64,000 nucleotides of DNA, from the sequence record KX377933; one strand, written 5' to 3'. Numbering within the stretch: the stretch's first letter is position 1; each line of letters starts with the position of its first letter. The notes beneath the pieces were generated by a model. The model saw only the letters and a list, made by a program, of their open reading frames with translations, had not been told where the DNA came from and ran no database searches. The position numbers and the translations under genes were made by a program. Positions 11,939 through 38,106 of this stretch are shown piece after piece. The stretch is from Escherichia phage vB_EcoM_Alf5.

Positions 11939-13048
11939 ATGTTGACTAATTCTGAAAAAAGCAGATTTTTACTTGCTGACCTGACTCGTGAAGTCCAGTC
12001 TATCCCAAACACTTATGGGTATATTTCCAACTTAGGTCTGTTCCGTTCAGCACCACAAACTCAGACAACCTTCCTGATGGACTTGACAGATTGGGATATC
12101 AGCTTGCTTGATGCTGTAGACCGCACTAGCCGTAAAGCTGAAACAAGTGCTCCTGAGCGTGTTCGTCAAATCAGCTTCCCAATGCTGTACTTCAAGGAAG
12201 TTGAAAGCATTACTCCTGATGAGATTCAGGGTGTACGTCAGCCAGGTACTGCAAATGAACTAACCACTGAAGCCATCGTTCGTGCTAAGAAGCTGATGAA
12301 GATTCGCACCAAGTTCGATATTACTCGTGAGTTCTTGTTCATGCAAGCTCTGAAGGGTAAAGTTATCGACGCTAATGGTGTTCTGTACGCAGACCTGTAC
12401 AAACAGTTCGATGTAACTAAGAAGACTATCTACTTCGACCTTGACAATCCGAACTCTGATATTGATGCTCACATCGAAGACCTACGTATGCACATGGAAG
12501 ACGAAGCTAAGACTGGTACTGTAATCAACGGTGAAGAGATTCACGTAGTTGTTGACAGAACTTTCTTCAGTAAACTTACCAAGCATCCGAAGATTCGTGA
12601 CGCATACCTTGCACAGCAGACTCCGCTGGCATGGCAACAGATTACTGGCTCTCTGAGAACTGGTGGTTCTGATGGTGTTCAGGCTCATATGAACACGTTC
12701 TACTACGGTGGTGTTAAGTTTGTCCAGTACAACGGTAAGTTCAAAGACAAGCGCGGCAAGACCCATACTCTGGTTAGCATCGATGGTGTTACTCAGGATG
12801 GAACTGTAGGTGTAGGGCACGCTTTCCCTAACGTTTCTATGCTTGGTGAAGCAAACAACATCTTTGAAGTAGCTTACGCTCCATGTCCGAAGATGGGCTA
12901 CGCAAATACTCTGGGTCAGGAGTTGTACGTATTTGAATACGAAAAAGACCGTGATGAAGGTATTGACTTTGAAGCTCACTCTTACATGCTGCCATACTGC
13001 ACACGTCCTCAGTTGCTGGTAGATGTTCGTTCTGACGCTCAAGAATAA
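11939..13048 (+). CDS. major capsid protein (putative)
   Basis: 369 aa ORF after protease and decoration genes; synonymous-looking codon usage and TAA stop; assigned by synteny. Confidence 0.6.
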   Translation: MLTNSEKSRFLLADLTREVQSIPNTYGYISNLGLFRSAPQTQTTFLMDLTDWDISLLDAVDRTSRKAETSAPERVRQISFPMLYFKEVESITPDEIQGVRQPGTANELTTEAIVRAKKLMKIRTKFDITREFLFMQALKGKVIDANGVLYADLYKQFDVTKKTIYFDLDNPNSDIDAHIEDLRMHMEDEAKTGTVINGEEIHVVVDRTFFSKLTKHPKIRDAYLAQQTPLAWQQITGSLRTGGSDGVQAHMNTFYYGGVKFVQYNGKFKDKRGKTHTLVSIDGVTQDGTVGVGHAFPNVSMLGEANNIFEVAYAPCPKMGYANTLGQELYVFEYEKDRDEGIDFEAHSYMLPYCTRPQLLVDVRSDAQE

Positions 13049-29724: not shown

Positions 29725-30624
29725 TTACTTACCTACTGACAGAGGTGCTTCAATCTTTCCTGCATGTTGGTAGTTGCTAATACCACCAATAAAATCACTT
29801 GCGGTAAGGTGTTTTAGGTCACTTATCGTGTTAAGCTGCACACCAATCTCAAAAGTAGGCGCATGGAACTCTTTATTGTTCATCAGTTCATAAACCTGCT
29901 TCATATGGTTCTGATAAATCTGAGTATCCCCAAAGACACCTATCAAGTACCGTGGAGTATATCCAGTCATCTTGCAAAGTACTTCCAGAATAAAACCATA
30001 AGATGCAATGTTAAATGGAAGACCTAAAAAGGTGTCTACAGAACGTTGATACCATTGTAAGTCAACTTCACCCTCGTTAGTGATATAAATCTGAAACAGA
30101 ACATGACAAGGTGCTAAAGCCATCGAGTTGGCTGCAATATCTGCTGCATTCCAAGCATTAACAAGCATGTAACGGTCTGTGATATCACCTTTCATCTTCG
30201 TTACTAAGGTCTCTAACTGGTCTACAACACAACCGTTATGACCTTCAAAGTTTCTCCACTGAACCCCGTAGATTCTACCACCTGCATCTTCTAACCAGTC
30301 TTGTTCAGAAGAATAGTTAGAGCTTAACCAACGTTTAAAATCATCTGACCAGATAGTCCAGCGTTCCCCATCATTTTCACCCCAAGTACGGTAGCGGAGT
30401 TCACCAAGTTTATTCTCACCATTCAGGAACCATAAAGCCTCCCCAATGACTTGCCGCGTAAACACCTGTTTAGATGTTAAGAGTGGGAAACCAGTTCTCA
30501 TATCAAAACGAAATTGTGGTGGAGCAAATGCAGAGATAACATCTCCAGTTCGTGTAGTACGCAGTTCACCAACTGATAAAACATGGTTCAGGATATTTTT
30601 GTAGCTTGTATCTGCTTGTGACAT
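29725..30624 (-). CDS. thyA: thymidylate synthase
   Basis: 299 aa with the conserved active-site stretch MALAPCHVLFQIYI. Confidence 0.85.
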   Translation of the reverse strand: MSQADTSYKNILNHVLSVGELRTTRTGDVISAFAPPQFRFDMRTGFPLLTSKQVFTRQVIGEALWFLNGENKLGELRYRTWGENDGERWTIWSDDFKRWLSSNYSSEQDWLEDAGGRIYGVQWRNFEGHNGCVVDQLETLVTKMKGDITDRYMLVNAWNAADIAANSMALAPCHVLFQIYITNEGEVDLQWYQRSVDTFLGLPFNIASYGFILEVLCKMTGYTPRYLIGVFGDTQIYQNHMKQVYELMNNKEFHAPTFEIGVQLNTISDLKHLTASDFIGGISNYQHAGKIEAPLSVGK

Positions 30625-30625
30625 A

Positions 30626-31171
30626 TTAAAAGTGCCCTTTTACTTGTGGAACATAGATTTCAAAAGTTGCTTTACCATCCTCTGATGGTTTTGACTGTAC
30701 CTTTGTAAACACACGGTTATCATACAGCTTCTCAAAGAAGTTTTCAAAAGGTAAATGCACAGTGGCCTCTTCAGTAACTTTATGGAAAACAGTATGGAAC
30801 ACCACACTAGCATACGGTAAAGCATTGACAAGGATACCTGCACCACCAATTACAAAGACATCTTCATCAATAGAGCTATCAAGATACTTCAAAAATGCTC
30901 CAAATGACTCTTTACTGGCTTTAGCATACATTACATCATCTTTGCCAAAGTCTATGCCTAAGTATGGTACAGAATTTGTTAAGATGAGGTTTGCACGTTC
31001 TGGTAAAGGTTTACTACCCAGAGTCTTAAAAGTCTTATTACCCATGACTACTAAGTTATTTTTAGTGAGTCTCTTAAACTCTTGCATGTCCTGTTTATGT
31101 CGAGGCCACGGCATACCAGTCGGTGTACCAAATTCACCGTTTTCACCACTTGCAAATATTAGTTTAATCAT
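30626..31171 (-). CDS. frd: dihydrofolate reductase
   Basis: 181 aa; N-terminus MIKLIFA...GMPW..., VVMGNKTF motif; adjacent to thyA. Confidence 0.8.
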   Translation of the reverse strand: MIKLIFASGENGEFGTPTGMPWPRHKQDMQEFKRLTKNNLVVMGNKTFKTLGSKPLPERANLILTNSVPYLGIDFGKDDVMYAKASKESFGAFLKYLDSSIDEDVFVIGGAGILVNALPYASVVFHTVFHKVTEEATVHLPFENFFEKLYDNRVFTKVQSKPSEDGKATFEIYVPQVKGHF

Positions 31172-31428
31172 TTTGTAAACCCTTTCTTAATGAACCAGTT
31201 GATGACACTCTTCACAAATTTACTACGATGGTAGATAAAATGTGGAGAGGGTTGGTATGAACCATAAGCCCAGAAAGCGATAATTTCATTACACCCTGTG
31301 CATCGGGTACTTTCTTCAGCAATATGACCGTTGACTATTTCACTTACCTCACCTTGTAAGTCTGTACACCCACAATGTGGACATCGGATAGGTGTTCCAT
31401 CAGACTCATAGCAGTGTTCAATTTTCAT
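31168..31428 (-). CDS. small zinc-ribbon protein
   Basis: 86 aa with CPHCGC...CTGC Cys pairs. Confidence 0.45.
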   Translation of the reverse strand: MKIEHCYESDGTPIRCPHCGCTDLQGEVSEIVNGHIAEESTRCTGCNEIIAFWAYGSYQPSPHFIYHRSKFVKSVINWFIKKGFTK

Positions 31429-31944
31429 TTATTTAACCTCAAAAACTGGCTCAAGAACCAATATAAAGTCTACACAGTCATCTTCTTCATCCAGAATACC
31501 ATCAAAGTTCTTAGGAACGAAGTCGAAGAGGCTCATAACAAAGCAGTCAGAAGTGACCTTGATAGTTCCTCCCATGTTCTCTACAGTCAACACTGTACGA
31601 CTTTCTTTTACCTCCCTCAGAAGATTACCCACAAAGTCGTCTAAGAAGTACTTCATCAGTGACTTGAAACCTTTAGGGTAATCTGTACCAGAGTATGTTT
31701 CAATCTGAGGAACAAGCTTAACATTTATACTAGTCTTTGTTAAGAACGTTTTAGAGAACATACTATCAGGTAACTTACAAACAGTCTTTCCAGTACCTTC
31801 ATGCTCAATCTCAACAAAACCAGCTTCGTCGCCACATGTAACTATTTTAAAAGATGCTTCATTCTCATACTGTGAAGCCATAAACTTTTTAAGCATCTCT
31901 TTAAGGAAGTCTGCATGAGCATCTTGTAAGAAGATATCAATCAT
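31429..31944 (-). CDS. hypothetical protein
   Basis: 171 aa ORF tightly packed in the minus-strand operon. Confidence 0.45.
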   Translation of the reverse strand: MIDIFLQDAHADFLKEMLKKFMASQYENEASFKIVTCGDEAGFVEIEHEGTGKTVCKLPDSMFSKTFLTKTSINVKLVPQIETYSGTDYPKGFKSLMKYFLDDFVGNLLREVKESRTVLTVENMGGTIKVTSDCFVMSLFDFVPKNFDGILDEEDDCVDFILVLEPVFEVK

Positions 31945-31957
31945 AGTTAATCACCTA

Positions 31958-32317
31958 TTATGGGAACAAACACTTAATGTCATCGTTTTTGAAAACAAAA
32001 CTTGTGTAATTATGACCATCAACATCCAGCCAAACAGCCTGAACATCTACACCATCAAGATTTTGGTAAAGCTCTTTGATGAAGTGGTCTTTTACAATCT
32101 GACTGCTAGTTGTTTCCAACTTAATGTTCGAGATTGCTGAACCTACAGCCATATAGCCCATGACACGTTTCTTCTCAGTATGCTTAATCTTACCATCTTT
32201 GTAAGCCATAATGAGATTGGAAAGAATCTTTACACCGTAATACTTTTCAAGGTGAGTAGGTACACCATAAAAGCCTAATGCGAAGTTTTCAGAGTGGATA
32301 ATGTTTTCACGTTTCAT
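31958..32317 (-). CDS. hypothetical protein
   Basis: 119 aa ORF in the same operon. Confidence 0.45.
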   Translation of the reverse strand: MKRENIIHSENFALGFYGVPTHLEKYYGVKILSNLIMAYKDGKIKHTEKKRVMGYMAVGSAISNIKLETTSSQIVKDHFIKELYQNLDGVDVQAVWLDVDGHNYTSFVFKNDDIKCLFP

Positions 32318-32318
32318 A

Positions 32319-32648
32319 CTAGTCTGCCAACCTTAAATTGAAATTAACACCAAATTTTTCACATACTTCCAACATATACTCAAGGGAAACATTACCAGTG
32401 AGGTGGATTATGTTGGATACACGAGCCTGAGAGATACCACAAATTTTAGCAACTTGCTCTTGAGAAAGACCTCTTGATTTAATCTCTCTCTTAAAACGAT
32501 GTGCAACGAAGTCTCTCATTTCATCTACATCCATTGGACAAATATAACTCTCCATTTCAGCCTCTCTATCAGCCTCCCAATCATCTTGTGGGGCATAAGG
32601 GTCAAAAACCTCATTCATCTTTCTTCTTCCGTTTGCGTGAAGTGTCAA
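32319..32648 (-). CDS. helix-turn-helix DNA-binding protein (XRE-like)
   Basis: C-terminal HTH-like stretch LSQEQVAKICGISQARVSNI; acidic N-terminus. Confidence 0.5.
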   Translation of the reverse strand: MTLHANGRRKMNEVFDPYAPQDDWEADREAEMESYICPMDVDEMRDFVAHRFKREIKSRGLSQEQVAKICGISQARVSNIIHLTGNVSLEYMLEVCEKFGVNFNLRLAD

Positions 32649-32823
32649 TCAATGAATCTATGTTTGTAGCCCTAACCTTTTCACGTTCATCATTAAGATA
32701 ATCGTCAAGAGCCTTTTCAATCTGTGAATCATCTTGACAGATGACTGTAAAGACTGTAAAGCCGTCTGTATCGTCAATTATCTTACCATAACCGCTTCTG
32801 GGATGTAACTTTTTAAGAGCCAT
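32611..32823 (-). CDS. hypothetical small protein
   Basis: 70 aa ORF overlapping the downstream gene start. Confidence 0.35.
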   Translation of the reverse strand: MALKKLHPRSGYGKIIDDTDGFTVFTVICQDDSQIEKALDDYLNDEREKVRATNIDSLIDTSRKRKKKDE

Positions 32824-32824
32824 A

Positions 32825-33208
32825 TTAGATACCTGTGCAGCTTCTGTTTTCTAAGAAATACTCAACACCATACATAGCTTTTTGCATCAAATCTTCTTTA
32901 AACTGGATACGATGGTTGAGCATAGCCTGTACATCAATATCATCATGGTGCTTCTCTTTAATATTTGCAGATTGCAGGAAATACTCTGCAAGAACGCGAT
33001 ACTGGTAGTCAGTTACCTTATCAGTCATCTCTGTCAAAGACTCTTCAGAGATTGGTTTAAGTAGCTCACCATTAGCTAGAGCAACACCTTTTACAATCTG
33101 GCAAGTATCCTCTGGAACACCTGATAAGTCCACATTTGGAAGTTCTGTTGCATTGACTGGTAAATTCATTGCCATAACCATTGCAGCAGCTAATAAAATC
33201 TTTTTCAT
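32825..33208 (-). CDS. secreted/periplasmic protein (signal peptide)
   Basis: N-terminus MKKILLAAAMVMAMNLPVNA looks like a cleavable signal peptide. Confidence 0.5.
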   Translation of the reverse strand: MKKILLAAAMVMAMNLPVNATELPNVDLSGVPEDTCQIVKGVALANGELLKPISEESLTEMTDKVTDYQYRVLAEYFLQSANIKEKHHDDIDVQAMLNHRIQFKEDLMQKAMYGVEYFLENRSCTGI

Positions 33209-33299
33209 AATGACCTCAAAGTTATATTAAATTTTGTATTACATTGAGTATAAAAATAAGCTATAACACCTGACTTGTCAACAGATTTTATAGCTTATT

Positions 33300-33600
33300 T
33301 GGCAGATTTTTTATAAGGCTACTGCCATCCTTCCATACCTTACCTTACCACACCTAACCATACCTAACCAAACTACACCATACAATACCTTGTTAAAAGA
33401 CCCTCTTAAAGACCTTTTAAAAAGGTAAGTCTCATTTTAATGTAGCTGAGACTAACTACCCGCACCTTACATCGCCATACCCAACCAAACCCAACCAGAC
33501 CGCACCTTACAGCGCCTAACCTTACCTGACCGAACCATACCTTATTAAAAGACCCTCTTAAAGACCTTTTAAAAAGGAGCCTCCGAAGAGGCTGCCTAGT
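33300..33600. repeat. composite repeat element, copy set 1
   Basis: Two G-free C-rich blocks with CC-heptamers every ~10 bp (33323-33393, 33462-33543), each followed by the 33-mer TTAAAAGACCCTCTTAAAGACCTTTTAAAAAGG (33393-33425, 33545-33577); hairpin AGTCTC/GAGACT at 33425-33461. Confidence 0.7.
33577..33600 (-). terminator. intrinsic terminator (minus strand)
   Basis: On the minus strand GCCTC-TTCG-GAGGC hairpin followed by a T-run, just after the stop of gene 33605-34045. Confidence 0.55.
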
Positions 33601-33604
33601 CAAC

Positions 33605-34045
33605 TTAGAAAGGTTTTCTACGTTGCTTGTTAATGTTAGCCTTCATAGCAGCTAAATGGTTTTGCTGTTCAATCAGTCGTGAACGTTCTTGATGGCTAAG
33701 TGCCATAGTGTTCACATTCTCAATCGCTTGAGTGGCTTGCTTTAAAGCTCGACCAATCTTACCAGACATTTTACGTTTTGCAATAGTTGCTTGATGCTTA
33801 GGTTCAACCACACGATAACCAACACCCATTGAAGCAACCAGATAAATCTTCTCTTCTTTAAGAAGCTTCTCAATAAACTTCTCAAGTCGGTTTAGACGTG
33901 TAAGCGCATAAGCCTTCATTTCATCTTCGTACTTAACAATGTCACCTTGATAAGTTGGCTTCACAATACCTAAGAAGGTGTCCATCTCAGAATGTGATAC
34001 AGTGTCACCGTAACTAAACTTTGCTGCTAATGCTTTCGTATTCAT
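33605..34045 (-). CDS. hypothetical protein
   Basis: 146 aa ORF; basic C-terminus. Confidence 0.45.
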   Translation of the reverse strand: MNTKALAAKFSYGDTVSHSEMDTFLGIVKPTYQGDIVKYEDEMKAYALTRLNRLEKFIEKLLKEEKIYLVASMGVGYRVVEPKHQATIAKRKMSGKIGRALKQATQAIENVNTMALSHQERSRLIEQQNHLAAMKANINKQRRKPF

Positions 34046-34047
34046 AA

Positions 34048-34653
<606 letters not shown>

Positions 34654-34699
34654 TTAGTTGATTGTTAAGTTGTTTGTAAAGAACCCTCAACAGAAGACT

Positions 34700-34965
34700 C
34701 TTTAGAAACTTGGTAGATTTTTAACGTGGCTACTACCATCCACCCATACCAGACCTAACCCGACCGCACCGAACCTGACCAGACCTCACAGCGCCACACC
34801 TCATTAAAAGACCCTGTTTAAAGACCTTTTAAAAAGGTAAGTCTCATTTTAATGTAGCTGAGACTAACTACCCATACCAAACAGCACCGCACTATGCCTT
34901 ACCCCACCTCACCGAGCCTCGCCCCACATCACTTAAAAAACCCTTTTCAAAGACTCTTAAGTGAT
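34700..34965. repeat. composite repeat element, copy set 2
   Basis: Second copy of GGCTACTRCCATCC + phased C-rich block + 33-mer (34804-34837) + identical hairpin GTAAGTCTCATTTTAATGTAGCTGAGACTAACTACCC (34838-34873) + second C-rich block and a degenerate 33-mer. Confidence 0.7.
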
Positions 34966-35181
34966 GTTGGTGAGTACCCGTTGGTTTATGCTGCTCAGTA
35001 TACTCACCAAATTTTCTATGTCAACAACTTTTTATAAAAAAGTTCTGATAGCTATATGTGTCACGAAACAAAAGATTGTAAACAAGACACCCATTGCAAA
35101 AGATGTGTCCAAAAGCTTACTTGCAACGTATGACAATACAAAGACAACCAGTATAAACAGAATGACTGTACTGAACATAGT

Positions 35182-36318
35182 TTATTCATAATCCCTAATA
35201 ACTAGCCCTACAGGGAACTGTAAAGACCCCTTACGAGTCATCTTCTGGAACTGAACCGTTAAAGGTTTCCCGATAAACTCTTCAGGGTGTTCAGCAAGAT
35301 ACTGTTTCTTCTCGTGAGTAGTCTTCCATGAAACATCTACAAAGACGTTAGGAAGAGTCTCTACAACGAACTTACCATGACCACGCTTATCGGTCTTGAC
35401 ACCAGTCACTTTAAACTCTTCAGTGTGCATCTTCTTGTGCTTAATCAAGAAGTATGAACGGTGACAACACTCATAGAAGGAGTCTTCAGAGATTGAACGG
35501 TACATTGCACCTTCAAACTTAGCTTCAACCCACTTATCATGAGCTTCATCAAACTCTTCCCAAGAATTTACACGGATAGTCTGTACAGGAACAACTCTAC
35601 AGGTATCCCCAAGCTCAACAATAGGTGAGTTATCAATAACTTCACGACGTTCAGGCCAAGATTTTGAATTGTCGCAGATATCATACCAGTAGAATTTAAG
35701 AAGGTGACGGTCTGGATTGTCAGCATTCTTAATCATAGACACAATGTCTTCTAAGTCCCAACCATGAGCATAAATCTCGCCATCAAAGTCTTCAACTTGT
35801 GGATGTAATTTAAGCAACAAAAGCAAATCTGGGATTAGTTCTTCTGGAACGTTGTAAACAGTATTCTCACGAGAATAAGCCGTGAAACTAACTGAATCAT
35901 CATCTCTTGAAATTCTACAACGAACACCATCAAGTTTTGGTTGAGCATCAGCAGGGAACTTCAGGTACTTCGCATGACTAACCTTTGCAGCATCATGAGC
36001 AAGCTGTACACCTACCTTCTCAGTATTCTGTGCAGACTCTTTTGTGTAAGCATAACCTTTACGGTCAACTTGCTTTTTATACTTAGCAGCAACTTCAAAG
36101 AGAGCTTGCTGTTCAGCGTTACGCTCATTCTTTTTACCGATGTTTTTAGGTTCTGCTGTATACTCTTCAAACATCATCTTGCCATTTTCTTTACCATAGG
36201 TTGTAATAACTTTGTCACCTACAGCAACGCATGACCAGACGTTGAAAGAGCCATCTTTATTTTGTTTGTATAGGATTGTCATTTTATTCCTCTGAGTGAT
36301 ACCAAGTGTTGCAAGCAT
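35182..36318 (-). CDS. ATP-dependent DNA ligase
   Basis: 378 aa; adenylation motif I KLDGVRC (KxDGxR). Confidence 0.75.
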   Translation of the reverse strand: MLATLGITQRNKMTILYKQNKDGSFNVWSCVAVGDKVITTYGKENGKMMFEEYTAEPKNIGKKNERNAEQQALFEVAAKYKKQVDRKGYAYTKESAQNTEKVGVQLAHDAAKVSHAKYLKFPADAQPKLDGVRCRISRDDDSVSFTAYSRENTVYNVPEELIPDLLLLLKLHPQVEDFDGEIYAHGWDLEDIVSMIKNADNPDRHLLKFYWYDICDNSKSWPERREVIDNSPIVELGDTCRVVPVQTIRVNSWEEFDEAHDKWVEAKFEGAMYRSISEDSFYECCHRSYFLIKHKKMHTEEFKVTGVKTDKRGHGKFVVETLPNVFVDVSWKTTHEKKQYLAEHPEEFIGKPLTVQFQKMTRKGSLQFPVGLVIRDYE

Positions 36319-36475
36319 TACATGCGTAAATCTCTAAGTCATTTTTATCCGGTTTATGAAAACAGTTTGCTCCGCAGTGGCAACGAAATGGCTTTCCACC
36401 AACTGTCAGGACGAAGGACTGAATCTTTCCATCAGGAGTTCGTACAGCATTTTTATGCTTATCTTCTTTGTTCAT
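36284..36475 (-). CDS. small zinc-ribbon protein
   Basis: 63 aa with CHCGANC...CNACN Cys pairs. Confidence 0.4.
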   Translation of the reverse strand: MNKEDKHKNAVRTPDGKIQSFVLTVGGKPFRCHCGANCFHKPDKNDLEIYACNACNTWYHSEE

Positions 36476-36777
36476 TTCCTCTTGCCACCAATTTCTACGT
36501 CAATAACTTGAACATCACCAGCAACATCAAACTTATGAATGATGCTTTCCACAGTGTAAGTCCAATCCTCAATGCGAACCAACTCACCTTCTCGTGGGAC
36601 GATTGGATTACGTTGAGCTACCGTTGTAGTGGAGTGAACAACATCATAACGATAGATATAGTTTACTAATACTTCCATCGTTAAAACCTCACTCAATAAC
36701 CGTAGTATGTGATTGACCATTTTTGCCATAGCTATAAGATGTTGTTGTTTGAGAGTTTGGGCATCTGACAACAACAA
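36472..36777 (-). CDS. hypothetical protein
   Basis: 101 aa ORF overlapping neighbours by 4 nt. Confidence 0.4.
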   Translation of the reverse strand: MLLSDAQTLKQQHLIAMAKMVNHILRLLSEVLTMEVLVNYIYRYDVVHSTTTVAQRNPIVPREGELVRIEDWTYTVESIIHKFDVAGDVQVIDVEIGGKRK

Positions 36778-36946
36778 TATCTCTGCTTATAGCATCACCA
36801 TTGAGTTTGTAGATTTTGCAGTCTTGCATCTCTGGAGGGAGGCTGTAAGAAGCATCTTTGTTTTCATAAGATGGGTTGCAGCCAGCCAGAAAAATTACTC
36901 CAAGTGCAACCATTGCTTTCACACAACTCTTAACCTTATTGTTCAC
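36689..36946 (-). CDS. putative lipoprotein
   Basis: Signal peptide with lipobox-like LAGC (MVALGVIFLAGCNPS); overlaps the neighbouring ORF in another frame. Confidence 0.4.
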   Translation of the reverse strand: MNNKVKSCVKAMVALGVIFLAGCNPSYENKDASYSLPPEMQDCKIYKLNGDAISRDIVVVRCPNSQTTTSYSYGKNGQSHTTVIE

Positions 36947-37078
36947 GATAGTCTACCTCTCTGTATGTTTTTAAATAGTGAGTGATGAGTTCTGGTAATT
37001 CACTACGTTTAACGTTTGAACGAAGAAGTGTCCAGTCAAAACCTTTACCAACCCTTCCCCAGAGACTGTACATTTTCT

Positions 37079-37312
37079 TCATAGCAACTCCAGAATATCA
37101 ATACGTTCGCCTTTGAGTACTCCAGTACGGTCTTTTGCAATCTTACCGTCAACGATAAGGATGTGTGTAGACCTTAAAGCATCGTTGTTAAAGGTTTTTA
37201 CGAACTTGCTAGGCATGACTACAATGGACATCTCCTGAATTAACTCTGGAGTGTAGCAGTTATCATGAAGTTGCTGAATAACGTCTGCAAGTGTCATTTT
37301 TGATGTCTCCAA
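37079..37312 (-). CDS. hypothetical small protein
   Basis: 77 aa ORF. Confidence 0.35.
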   Translation of the reverse strand: METSKMTLADVIQQLHDNCYTPELIQEMSIVVMPSKFVKTFNNDALRSTHILIVDGKIAKDRTGVLKGERIDILELL

Positions 37313-37503
37313 TACTCAATGTCAATAAGTTCTTGTGCAATGCTTTTTAGATTACCTTTCAAGAAAACCTTCTCAGAACCTGAAAGAGATGAATTGTCAA
37401 TTAACCTGTTCATTCTCTCAAACAACTTCTGCTTACGGTTCTTGATAGTTTCCTTTGAAGCACCTTTCATCATTGCTGCATGGGTTCTTCCACGGTGGCT
37501 CAT
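37294..37503 (-). CDS. hypothetical small basic protein
   Basis: 69 aa ORF, Lys/Arg-rich. Confidence 0.35.
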   Translation of the reverse strand: MSHRGRTHAAMMKGASKETIKNRKQKLFERMNRLIDNSSLSGSEKVFLKGNLKSIAQELIDIEYWRHQK

Positions 37504-37554
37504 AAGCCCTCCTATATAAGATATAGTATAAGGTACTCTTCCATGAGCACCTTG

Positions 37555-38106
37555 TCAAGATAGTTTTGCAAACTCTCCGTGGAGCTTAATAGCAGCTTCA
37601 CAGTAAGCTTTATGGGCTTCTTCTGGTGTGTCAAACATACCAAGATGATAGTTTTTACCTTGTAAACGTATCATTGCTCGAAACATTTTACTTATCTTCT
37701 GTACACCTTTTGGCAACCCAGATGGGGACTCTCTTGACCGATTGCAAGAGTTTTGTGAAGCTGTACAAACCCTTAAATTCAAGTACCTATTGTCCCAACC
37801 GTCCCCATTCTTATGGTCAACCTGTAAGGTTTTATCAGGTAGATATCCATCCATATACAAGATAACTAAACGATTTGCTTGGTAACCCCTTCCATCAATC
37901 AGCAACTGAACTGACTTGTGTCCATCAGTATTTGTTCTGTAGTTTCCAGCCCTCTTACCTCCAAATCTAGAGTTAAAGTTTGCATTACCTTCTCTAAACT
38001 TCCAAGTAAAGACCCCTGTTTCGGGGTCGTAGTCCAATAGCTCCTTAAGACGAATTTCTGTAATCATTTCAACACCATCAATGCACTTCCAACCAGCTCT
38101 TACCAA
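37555..38106 (-). CDS. HNH endonuclease with AP2-like DNA-binding domain
   Basis: HNH motif QVDHKNGDGWDNRYLNLRVCTASQN; C-terminal AP2-like segment GKNYHLGMFDTPEEAHKAY; overlaps the 3' end of the polymerase gene. Confidence 0.65.
   Translation of the reverse strand: MVRAGWKCIDGVEMITEIRLKELLDYDPETGVFTWKFREGNANFNSRFGGKRAGNYRTNTDGHKSVQLLIDGRGYQANRLVILYMDGYLPDKTLQVDHKNGDGWDNRYLNLRVCTASQNSCNRSRESPSGLPKGVQKISKMFRAMIRLQGKNYHLGMFDTPEEAHKAYCEAAIKLHGEFAKLS

Follow-up and report, generated by a model that had tools for sequence, protein, structure and literature searches.

A probable type II VIPR locus of the SUSP1 clade, with two guide RNAs on either side of vipr and vap1, in a Felixounavirus genome

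VIPR (Viral Interference Programmable Repeat) was defined in two preprints of 2026 (bioRxiv 10.64898/2026.04.26.720920 and 10.64898/2026.04.26.720927), whose searchable text presents it as a phage-borne form of RNA-guided DNA recognition, predating CRISPR and relying on a noncontiguous code. According to that text, VIPR loci comprise a vipr gene, encoding a minimal RAMP protein with an RRM core, a G-loop and a thumb, together with a vap gene and flanking vrRNAs; individual vrRNAs consist of 9-16 YNNGG repeats, in which GGY is conserved and NN is hypervariable, followed by a pseudoknot tail of ~40 nt (10.64898/2026.04.26.720920). The NN bases are described as pairing with DNA, one target base being skipped per repeat, and a satellite of the phage is the target of most guides in the SUSP1 clade, which is defined by >90% identity to SUSP1 Vipr (10.64898/2026.04.26.720920). 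In SUSP1-infected cells four vrRNAs of ~100 nt were seen, one upstream and three downstream of the genes; in the searchable text, vrRNA expression, co-purification with Vipr and target repression are shown for SUSP1 only (10.64898/2026.04.26.720920). The searchable part of the companion preprint describes a helical filament with one Vipr protomer per repeat, in which the GGY bases are buried by H17, D177, R138, W178 and R179, and a tail that by cryo-EM is a pseudoknot capping the 3′ end of the filament, with no switch (10.64898/2026.04.26.720927).

Class 1 CRISPR backbones, in which Cas7/Csm3 assembles on crRNA, share with VIPR the RAMP fold and the arrangement of one protomer per RNA repeat unit. 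As far as the searchable text of the preprints goes, they also share a thumb that periodically interrupts guide-target pairing and a variable guide capped by a conserved structured handle. In contrast to CRISPR, the VIPR guide is noncontiguous, with one in three target bases skipped and 2/5 of guide bases paired, against 5/6 in CRISPR. The system described here also differs in being phage-encoded, without a repeat-spacer array, adaptation genes or other cas genes: positions 30000-38000 hold no repeat-spacer array with contiguous spacers, no cas1/cas2 and no multi-subunit effector genes.

The repeats themselves have been annotated in relatives. In wV8 (NC_012749), a repeat_region named "DR_4" covers the same sequences in the same two intergenic regions, the label being descriptive only; in KhF3 they are called "direct repeat sequence4, possible binding site of StbAB", again in the same intergenic regions and as a speculative annotation. 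The genome papers of wV8 and Felix O1 do not discuss them.

We analysed a 64,000-nt stretch of sequence record KX377933 (the window), which belongs to a Felixounavirus, that is, to a myophage like Felix O1 and wV8; 229 phage records match the 2 kb around the element at roughly 91-98% identity. In all likelihood, the element makes up the upstream half of a SUSP1-clade VIPR locus of type II, in which vipr-vap1 is preceded by two vrRNAs and followed by two more. It is real and functional, and its membership of the published model clade means that it is already known, and explained by the VIPR preprints of 2026. The surrounding genes (ligase, a 48-aa ORF, a two-gene cassette, then 32825-33208) all lie on the minus strand, in a neighbourhood of ligase, polymerase, DHFR and thymidylate synthase genes. 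An earlier sequence-only reading had placed the element downstream of the ligase gene, which holds in the sense of transcription; it had, however, read the antisense, whereas the informative strand is the minus strand. In order of transcription, the features are as follows.

35182-36318, minus: ligase gene
35032-35178, minus: ORF of 48 aa
34997-35024, minus: P1, near-consensus sigma-70 promoter TTGACA-N16-TATACT, matching at 11 of 12 positions; predicted function
34926-34967, minus: extended hairpin, type B, ACAUCACUUAAGAGUCUUU-GAAA-AGGGUUUUUUAAGUGAUGU, 5′-adjacent to the first guide; in the MFE and centroid folds
34874-34928, minus: guide of vrRNA U1, 11 pentamers (TGTGG ... GGTAT); NN: GG GA TC GA GG AA AT GC GC TT AT
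34840-34873, minus: 3′ tail of vrRNA U1, type T1, GGGUAGUU-AGUCUCA-GCUAC-AUUAAAA-UGAGACU, then UACCUUUUU; in antisense, the 36-nt hairpin of the sequence-only reading
34804-34837, minus: inter-vrRNA module type A (34-mer), U-tract CCUUUUU and hairpin UUAAAAGGUCUU-UAAAC-AGGGUCUUUUAA with 3 G.U pairs; in the MFE and centroid folds
34746-34800, minus: guide of vrRNA U2, 11 pentamers (GGTGT ... GGTAT); NN: GT GC GA CT CA TC GC CG TA CT AT
34711-34744, minus: 3′ tail of vrRNA U2, type T2, GGUGGAUGGUAGUAGCCACGUUAAAAAUCUACCA; holds in antisense the lead GGCTACTACCATCC of the earlier reading
34048-34635, minus: vipr, encoding Vipr, 195 aa, a RAMP (Cas7/Csm3-like) homolog
33605-34045, minus: vap1, encoding the Vipr accessory protein, 146 aa
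33578-33593, minus: intrinsic terminator after vap1, AGCCUC-UUCG-GAGGCU then CCUUUUU; an annotated terminator in phage ASO1B
33545-33577, minus: inter-vrRNA module type A (33-mer)
33462-33541, minus: guide of vrRNA D1, 16 pentamers; NN: AT TC CA AA TA GC AA GC CT TG TT TG AT GA AA GC
33428-33461, minus: 3′ tail of vrRNA D1, type T1, identical to 34840-34873
33393-33425, minus: inter-vrRNA module type A (33-mer)
33335-33389, minus: guide of vrRNA D2, 11 pentamers; NN: AT AT GT TT TA AT TA GT AA AA AT
33300-33333, minus: 3′ tail of vrRNA D2, type T2 (GAAGGAUGGCAGUAGCCUUAUAAAAAAUCUGCCA); holds in antisense the lead GGCTACTGCCATCC of the earlier reading
33253-33281, minus: P2, sigma-70-like promoter TTGACA-N17-TATTTT for the gene at 32825-33208; an annotated promoter in ASO1B and AYO145A
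32825-33208, minus: next gene past the downstream array

The interpretation given in the sequence-only reading is partly supported. The recurrence that it described is real: in a repeat finder, 33299-33423 and 34710-34834 are 71% identical, and 33406-33507 and 34818-34919 are 81% identical. The identical hairpin is found as an exact 37-nt copy, GTAAGTCTCATTTTAATGTAGCTGAGACTAACTACCC, at 33425-33461 and 34837-34873, and the shared lead GGCTACTRCCATCC stands at 33317-33330 and 34728-34741. The 33-mer occurs exactly at 33393-33425 and 33545-33577, where shuffled sequence is expected to give 0 matches; its reported variant is the 34-mer at 34804-34837, with one extra base located in the hairpin loop, and 34926-34967 holds the degenerate 33-mer within its inverted repeat CACTTAA/TTAAGTG. 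Equally specific are the phased C-rich blocks, with a scan of all 64 kb for CC every 5 nt returning four places only, all on the plus strand (33309-33402, 33441-33559, 34720-34818 and 34858-34946). What fails is the picture of two copies duplicated ~1.4 kb apart. There are four units, two per intergenic region, and the supposed copies are two guide arrays, one on either side of the vipr-vap1 operon, in the layout of phage SUSP1. Likewise, the diverged flanks and phased C-rich blocks, passed over as filler, are the functional core, that is, the GGY/NN guide region (G2 96%, Y3 95%, NN free).

The two proteins tie the locus to SUSP1. The ORF at 34048-34650 (200 aa), when started from the ATG at 34635, gives the 195-aa Vipr, which is identical at 191 of 195 positions to PDB 36pp_D, "SUSP1 Vipr protein" (E 2e-128); a profile built from 40 Vipr homologs matches one solved structure only, the same 36pp (E 6e-80). 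An AF2 model of Vipr (pLDDT 94.8) has Csm3/Cas7 as its best Foldseek matches in a PDB library predating 36pp. Vipr carries H17, K33, E71, M72, R138, C173, D177, W178 and R179, and all the RNA/DNA-contact residues named in the searchable text of 10.64898/2026.04.26.720927 are found in it. The product of the 146-aa gene is identical at 145 of 146 positions to that of the gene directly downstream of vipr in SUSP1, and we equate it with vap1 by its position in the two-gene locus, as this is described in the searchable text of the preprint (10.64898/2026.04.26.720920). The two genes are conserved together: of the 116 phage records that match, 115 do so at ≥95% DNA identity and all at ≥90%. Neither product matched a family in Pfam or PADLOC, and PHROGs returned only "unknown function" families. 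Only 131 phage records yielded homologs of Vipr, among them distant homologs from phages of Pseudomonas, Gordonia, Mycobacterium and Vibrio.

The likeness to the SUSP1 type II locus extends from the proteins (Vipr 98%, vap1 99% identical) and the position between ligase and a gp93-like gene to P1, the type A and B hairpins, the T1 and T2 tails, the GGY/NN repeats and an E. coli satellite as predicted target class. The differences lie in the arrangement, SUSP1 having 1 + 3 vrRNAs and the window 2 + 2, and in the NN guides; furthermore, SUSP1 is a Suspvirus, whereas the phage of the window is a Felixounavirus known here from sequence alone. The window holds a natural member of the model clade, which in itself adds only four new guides with predicted satellite targets. 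It also has value as a check: raw sequence was enough to recover independently the logo of the repeats, the quantisation of their length in steps of 5 nt, the pseudoknots of the tails, the linkage between protein and array and the 1-nt skip.

For comparison, the same locus was gathered from IMG/VR contigs and phage records. On the minus strand, each unit consists of an AU/GU-rich hairpin, 11-16 pentamers of the form D-G-Y-N-N and a conserved tail of ~34 nt, and relatives carry one to three units per intergenic region. The hairpins are nearly invariant, whereas the G-blocks are unalignable between phages whose flanks are 92-98% identical; the relatives hold 77 unique guide blocks, compared with 16 and 8 variants of the tails. 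The lengths of these blocks are quantised, with differences in multiples of five. In a logo of the 957 in-frame pentamers from the 77 unique blocks, G makes up 81% of position 1, where C never occurs, and 96% of position 2, position 3 is T (85%) or C (10%), and N4-N5 hold ~0.1 bit. The remaining 19% of the 957 pentamers begin with T or A, which is looser than the published GGY; in the searchable published description, G1 of the repeat is specifically hydrogen-bonded by H17 and D177 (10.64898/2026.04.26.720927). The four guide blocks of the window hold 11, 11, 16 and 11 repeats, within the published range of 9-16, and guide plus tail amount to ~90-118 nt, compatible with the ~100-nt vrRNAs seen in SUSP1.

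The proposal of selection on the hairpin, whether for a small RNA or for a protein-recognition site, is supported, as is the view that more than a recent duplication is involved. The hairpin is the 3′ tail of a vrRNA (the pseudoknot cap), and hence part of a small RNA and of a protein-RNA complex, and its stem pairing survives compensatory changes in relatives, which derive from few haplotypes. The 7-bp stem of T1 is 100% paired in 16 variants, with three pairs changed on both sides, and the swap of AGUCUCA/UGAGACU for AAUCGGA/UYCGAUU fully keeps the pairing. An invariant GUAG upstream of the stem can pair with an invariant CUAC in the loop, and T1 would fit an H-type pseudoknot through GUAG:CUAC; as this helix never varies, it draws no covariation support of its own, and we infer it from complementarity. 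The T2 tail, which ends the last unit of each array, is a two-helix pseudoknot (GUGG:CCAC and UGGUAG:CUACCA), in which both helices compensate relative to an AAGG:CCUU / UGGCAG:CUGCCA version. Both tails agree with the published description (~40 nt, hairpin and pseudoknot) and are identical to those of SUSP1, whose vrRNA1 also carries the T2 type. An Rfam search found nothing for the element.

In the module hairpins (types A and B), variation among phages is concentrated in the loop and includes a ~25-nt insertion. Type B is a longer version of type A, with a loop that differs in sequence and length among phages. The G.U pairs of type A become C.A mismatches on the plus strand, and the hairpin is therefore sensible only as minus-strand RNA. 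A sigma-70 promoter inside the 33-mer (TTAAAA-N17-TTTAAT) was considered and rejected, as its -10 hexamer lacks the key A at position 2.

The link between array and protein is not restricted to close relatives. A scan of IMG/VR by DNA pattern alone, (GGTNN)x6, retrieved >120 contigs, many of them unrelated to Felix O1 and often holding long arrays with variable NN. A Vipr homolog was found by tblastn in 27 of the unrelated pattern-selected loci, and in three such contigs that were inspected the array immediately follows the stop codon of a gene whose product ends in G-[IV]-G-D-[WF]-R-P, a motif like that of the window protein. As arrays retrieved by pattern encode Vipr homologs, array and protein belong together. 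Among the 229 matching phage records, the vipr-vap1 cassette is present in 116 and absent from 113; the 116 far exceed the 13 loci that, according to the searchable text, were used by the preprint to define the clade. Felix O1 is one of the phages without vipr and vap1 between ligase and ORF204, and has a single unit there (contig L024, 2300-2640; AF320576, 57.6-57.9 kb), in which P1 and the type B hairpin are kept, as are a D-G-Y-N-N block of 11 repeats and a T2 tail (compare 33300-33389 of the window). By its sequence, this block looks like an orphan vrRNA.

The guides point to a mobile element of the host. When complete E. coli genomes were searched with the locus by BLAST, 150 chromosomes showed vrRNA-like matches of ~80 nt, which lie in an island of ~11 kb integrated at several sites. 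Its genes encode a large serine recombinase, a baseplate protein, a tape-measure protein, an HNH endonuclease and a small recombinase; vipr and vap1 are absent from it. Copies on three E. coli chromosomes span L184:5266-16700, L185:9100-20480 and L186:9290-20440, and three integration sites were seen (wrbA-ymdF, tonB-yciI and inside a DUF72 gene). The L184 island holds a vrRNA-like block of its own, with a T2-like tail and an altered stem (UGUCG...CGAC).

Targets were searched by the published 1-nt-skip rule (guide GGYNN to target xNN) with a threshold of ≥80% of NN positions, in five island copies (~51 kb) and by one BLAST search. The U2 guide matches at 20/22 NN positions at 12001-12032 in satellites L185 and L186; a 32-mer derived from it gave a 30/30 BLAST match in 2 E. 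coli genomes, and 362 of 5426 genomes contain its target region. For U1 the best match is 19/22, at L185 19286-19317, inside the large serine-recombinase gene, and D2 reaches 19/22 at L185 12331-12362, a site that precedes the first gene of the satellite's rightward operon by 30 nt. The best match of D1 in the five satellite copies is 23/32 (72%), below the 80% threshold. Three of the four guides therefore match the satellite at 86-91% of NN, values for U2, U1 and D2 that 0 of 300 order-shuffled guides reached. With skips of 0, 2 or 3 the guides gave ≤17 NN positions, against chromosomal flanks ≤16 and against the 64-kb window itself ≤16; all controls together (other skips, shuffled guides, flanks and window) stayed at ≤18. 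Among the guides of relatives, 39 of 74 reach ≥80% of NN with the 1-nt skip, compared with 0-2 under other rules and 1 when shuffled. As a matter of predicted pairing, the target analysis independently reproduces the published skip rule and target class. Since at least three of the four vrRNAs have NN codes pointing to the ~11-kb E. coli satellite, the likely role of the vrRNA system is the suppression of a parasite of the phage. A link to DNA replication or burst size, suggested earlier, is without support, the predicted targets sitting in an E. coli satellite element.

Read on the minus strand, the locus runs from P1 through two vrRNAs, vipr, vap1, the terminator and two more vrRNAs to the promoter of the next gene. 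P1 would drive the upstream array, the module of U-tract and 33-mer hairpin would end one vrRNA and mark the 5′ boundary of the next, and the transcript ends are predicted ones for this phage. Each vrRNA comprises 11-16 five-nt repeats, with G-G-pyrimidine fixed and two bases free, and then a pseudoknot 3′ tail of ~34 nt. If the published mechanism applies, one Vipr protomer would sit on each repeat, hiding GGY and presenting NN, and the filament would pair with double-stranded DNA with every third target base skipped, leading to silencing of transcription. The preprints are the source for expression, for the formation of RNPs, for a triplex/R-loop mechanism and for silencing.

Other readings of the repeats have to be weighed against this one. 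The sites could be transcription punctuation only, that is, a terminator/promoter stack between operons that was duplicated by insertion of the two-gene cassette. There is a clear terminator after vap1, P1 and P2 are promoter-like, other annotators call these sites promoter or terminator, a U-tract follows the T1 tail, and Felix O1 lacks the cassette. However, punctuation leaves unexplained the strict D-G-Y-N-N period and the length quantisation, the linkage of arrays to Vipr homologs in unrelated phages and the gapped matches to satellites, and a variant T1 tail (AAUCGGA/UUCGAUU) has no U-tract behind it; we consider this reading highly improbable. An action at the level of DNA, with the G-rich arrays serving as iterons, as R-loop or G-quadruplex formers or as RecA-preferred GT-rich DNA in a replication origin or recombination hotspot, appears extremely unlikely. 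The locus does lie among ligase, polymerase, DHFR and thymidylate synthase genes, two-tier G-quadruplexes could arise from the GG-N3 spacing, and the blocks evolve fast, as a hotspot would. Yet neither G-quadruplexes nor R-loops need the conserved Y3 or the lack of C at position 1, the G.U pairs of the hairpins and their G.U<->G-C changes fit minus-strand RNA only, and the adjacent protein is a RAMP RNA-binding protein and no initiator.

The repeats also recall the Bacillus trp leader, in which TRAP reads 11 (G/U)AG triplets spaced by 2-3 nt. Both systems have an oligomeric protein that recognises a conserved triplet at intervals of ~5 nt along single-stranded RNA; TRAP differs in its unrelated fold, in having uninformative spacer bases where those of VIPR are the guide, and in acting by attenuation rather than DNA targeting. 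On such a model, a ring or filament protein on the GGU leader repeats would switch the GUAGUU...AGCUAC hairpin against a downstream stem and U-tract, and so control read-through into vipr-vap1 and beyond. One triplet per 5 nt resembles TRAP sites, the repeat frame continues in register into the start of the tail (GGGUA-GUUAG), the tail has two alternative pairings, and attenuation might operate alongside the VIPR role, as a form of autoregulation. Against this, the neighbouring proteins hold no TRAP (MtrB) domain or TRAP homolog and the repeat-binding protein is a RAMP, variant tails occur without a U-tract, and the cryo-EM tail is, in the searchable text, a pseudoknot cap and not a switch (10.64898/2026.04.26.720927), which makes attenuation most improbable. 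A TRAP-like working model was superseded by the identification of Vipr.

Several further candidates were rejected in favour of the VIPR locus. A packaging site or direct terminal repeat was dropped after the protein identification, and the record of UAB_Phi87, whose terminal repeats are 608 bp (PMC4837284), starts elsewhere. A Rho utilisation site on the C-rich plus strand conflicts with the local genes, which are all on the minus strand, and with the hairpins, which work in minus-strand RNA only. T7-type primase sites (GGGTC/TGGTC) would need C at position 4, which is unenriched at 14%, and a CsrA, Hfq or Shine-Dalgarno-like sponge is at odds with a conserved triplet of GGY and not GGA.

Some interest remains in the hairpin module between vrRNAs, in the existence of two classes of tail, in the vrRNA-like block of the vipr-less Felix O1 and in the breadth of the clade. 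We tentatively raise the possibility, which we think rather unlikely, that the 33/34-nt module (U-tract and 12-bp AU/GU hairpin) and its extended version are a dedicated signal for vrRNA biogenesis, and that the Felix O1-type block is loaded in trans by the Vipr of co-infecting relatives or is a decoy against their VIPR. As a biogenesis signal, the module would end one vrRNA and set the 5′ end of the next by processing. The searchable text of the VIPR preprints covers neither the inter-vrRNA module nor the vipr-less Felix O1 block, and that of the VIPR preprint mentions neither terminators nor RNA processing; a search of the literature found no Felixounavirus transcriptomics.

Both promoters are accompanied by inverted repeats. 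The P1 sequence is found at the same place in SUSP1 and likewise in Felix O1, there with the -10 hexamer TATGCT. An inverted repeat, GGTGAGTA...TACTCACC (34975-35012, minus), spans the P1 -10 hexamer and the predicted start site. Felix O1 and SUSP1 conserve this repeat, which might serve to control vrRNA transcription at the level of DNA. Between ligase and P1, the 48-aa ORF (35032-35178, minus) encodes a strongly hydrophobic product (PHROG 22006) and is missing at this position in Felix O1, wV8 and SUSP1. At P2, a 19-nt inverted repeat, AAATAAGCTATAA.../...TTATAGCTTATTT (33254-33300, 89% complementary), brackets the -35 hexamer and overlaps the -10 hexamer. It looks like an operator, and a gene for an HTH regulator lies just downstream (32319-32648).

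The record GU169904.1, named Staphylococcus phage SA1 (147 kb), holds the vipr-vap1 region at 91233-92278 with 98.3% identity, which in a record so labelled suggests a chimeric or contaminated assembly. Finally, four unrelated IMG/VR contigs, L079:3390-3850(-), L097:11510-12050(-), L103:7530-7830(-) and L090:2217-3396(+), contain uninterrupted (GGTNN)n arrays of 300-1200 nt, punctuated every 10-13 repeats by GGCAG or GGCTAATGG. In L079, L097 and L103 the array directly follows the stop codon of a Vipr homolog, and all four are probably other architectures of VIPR arrays.
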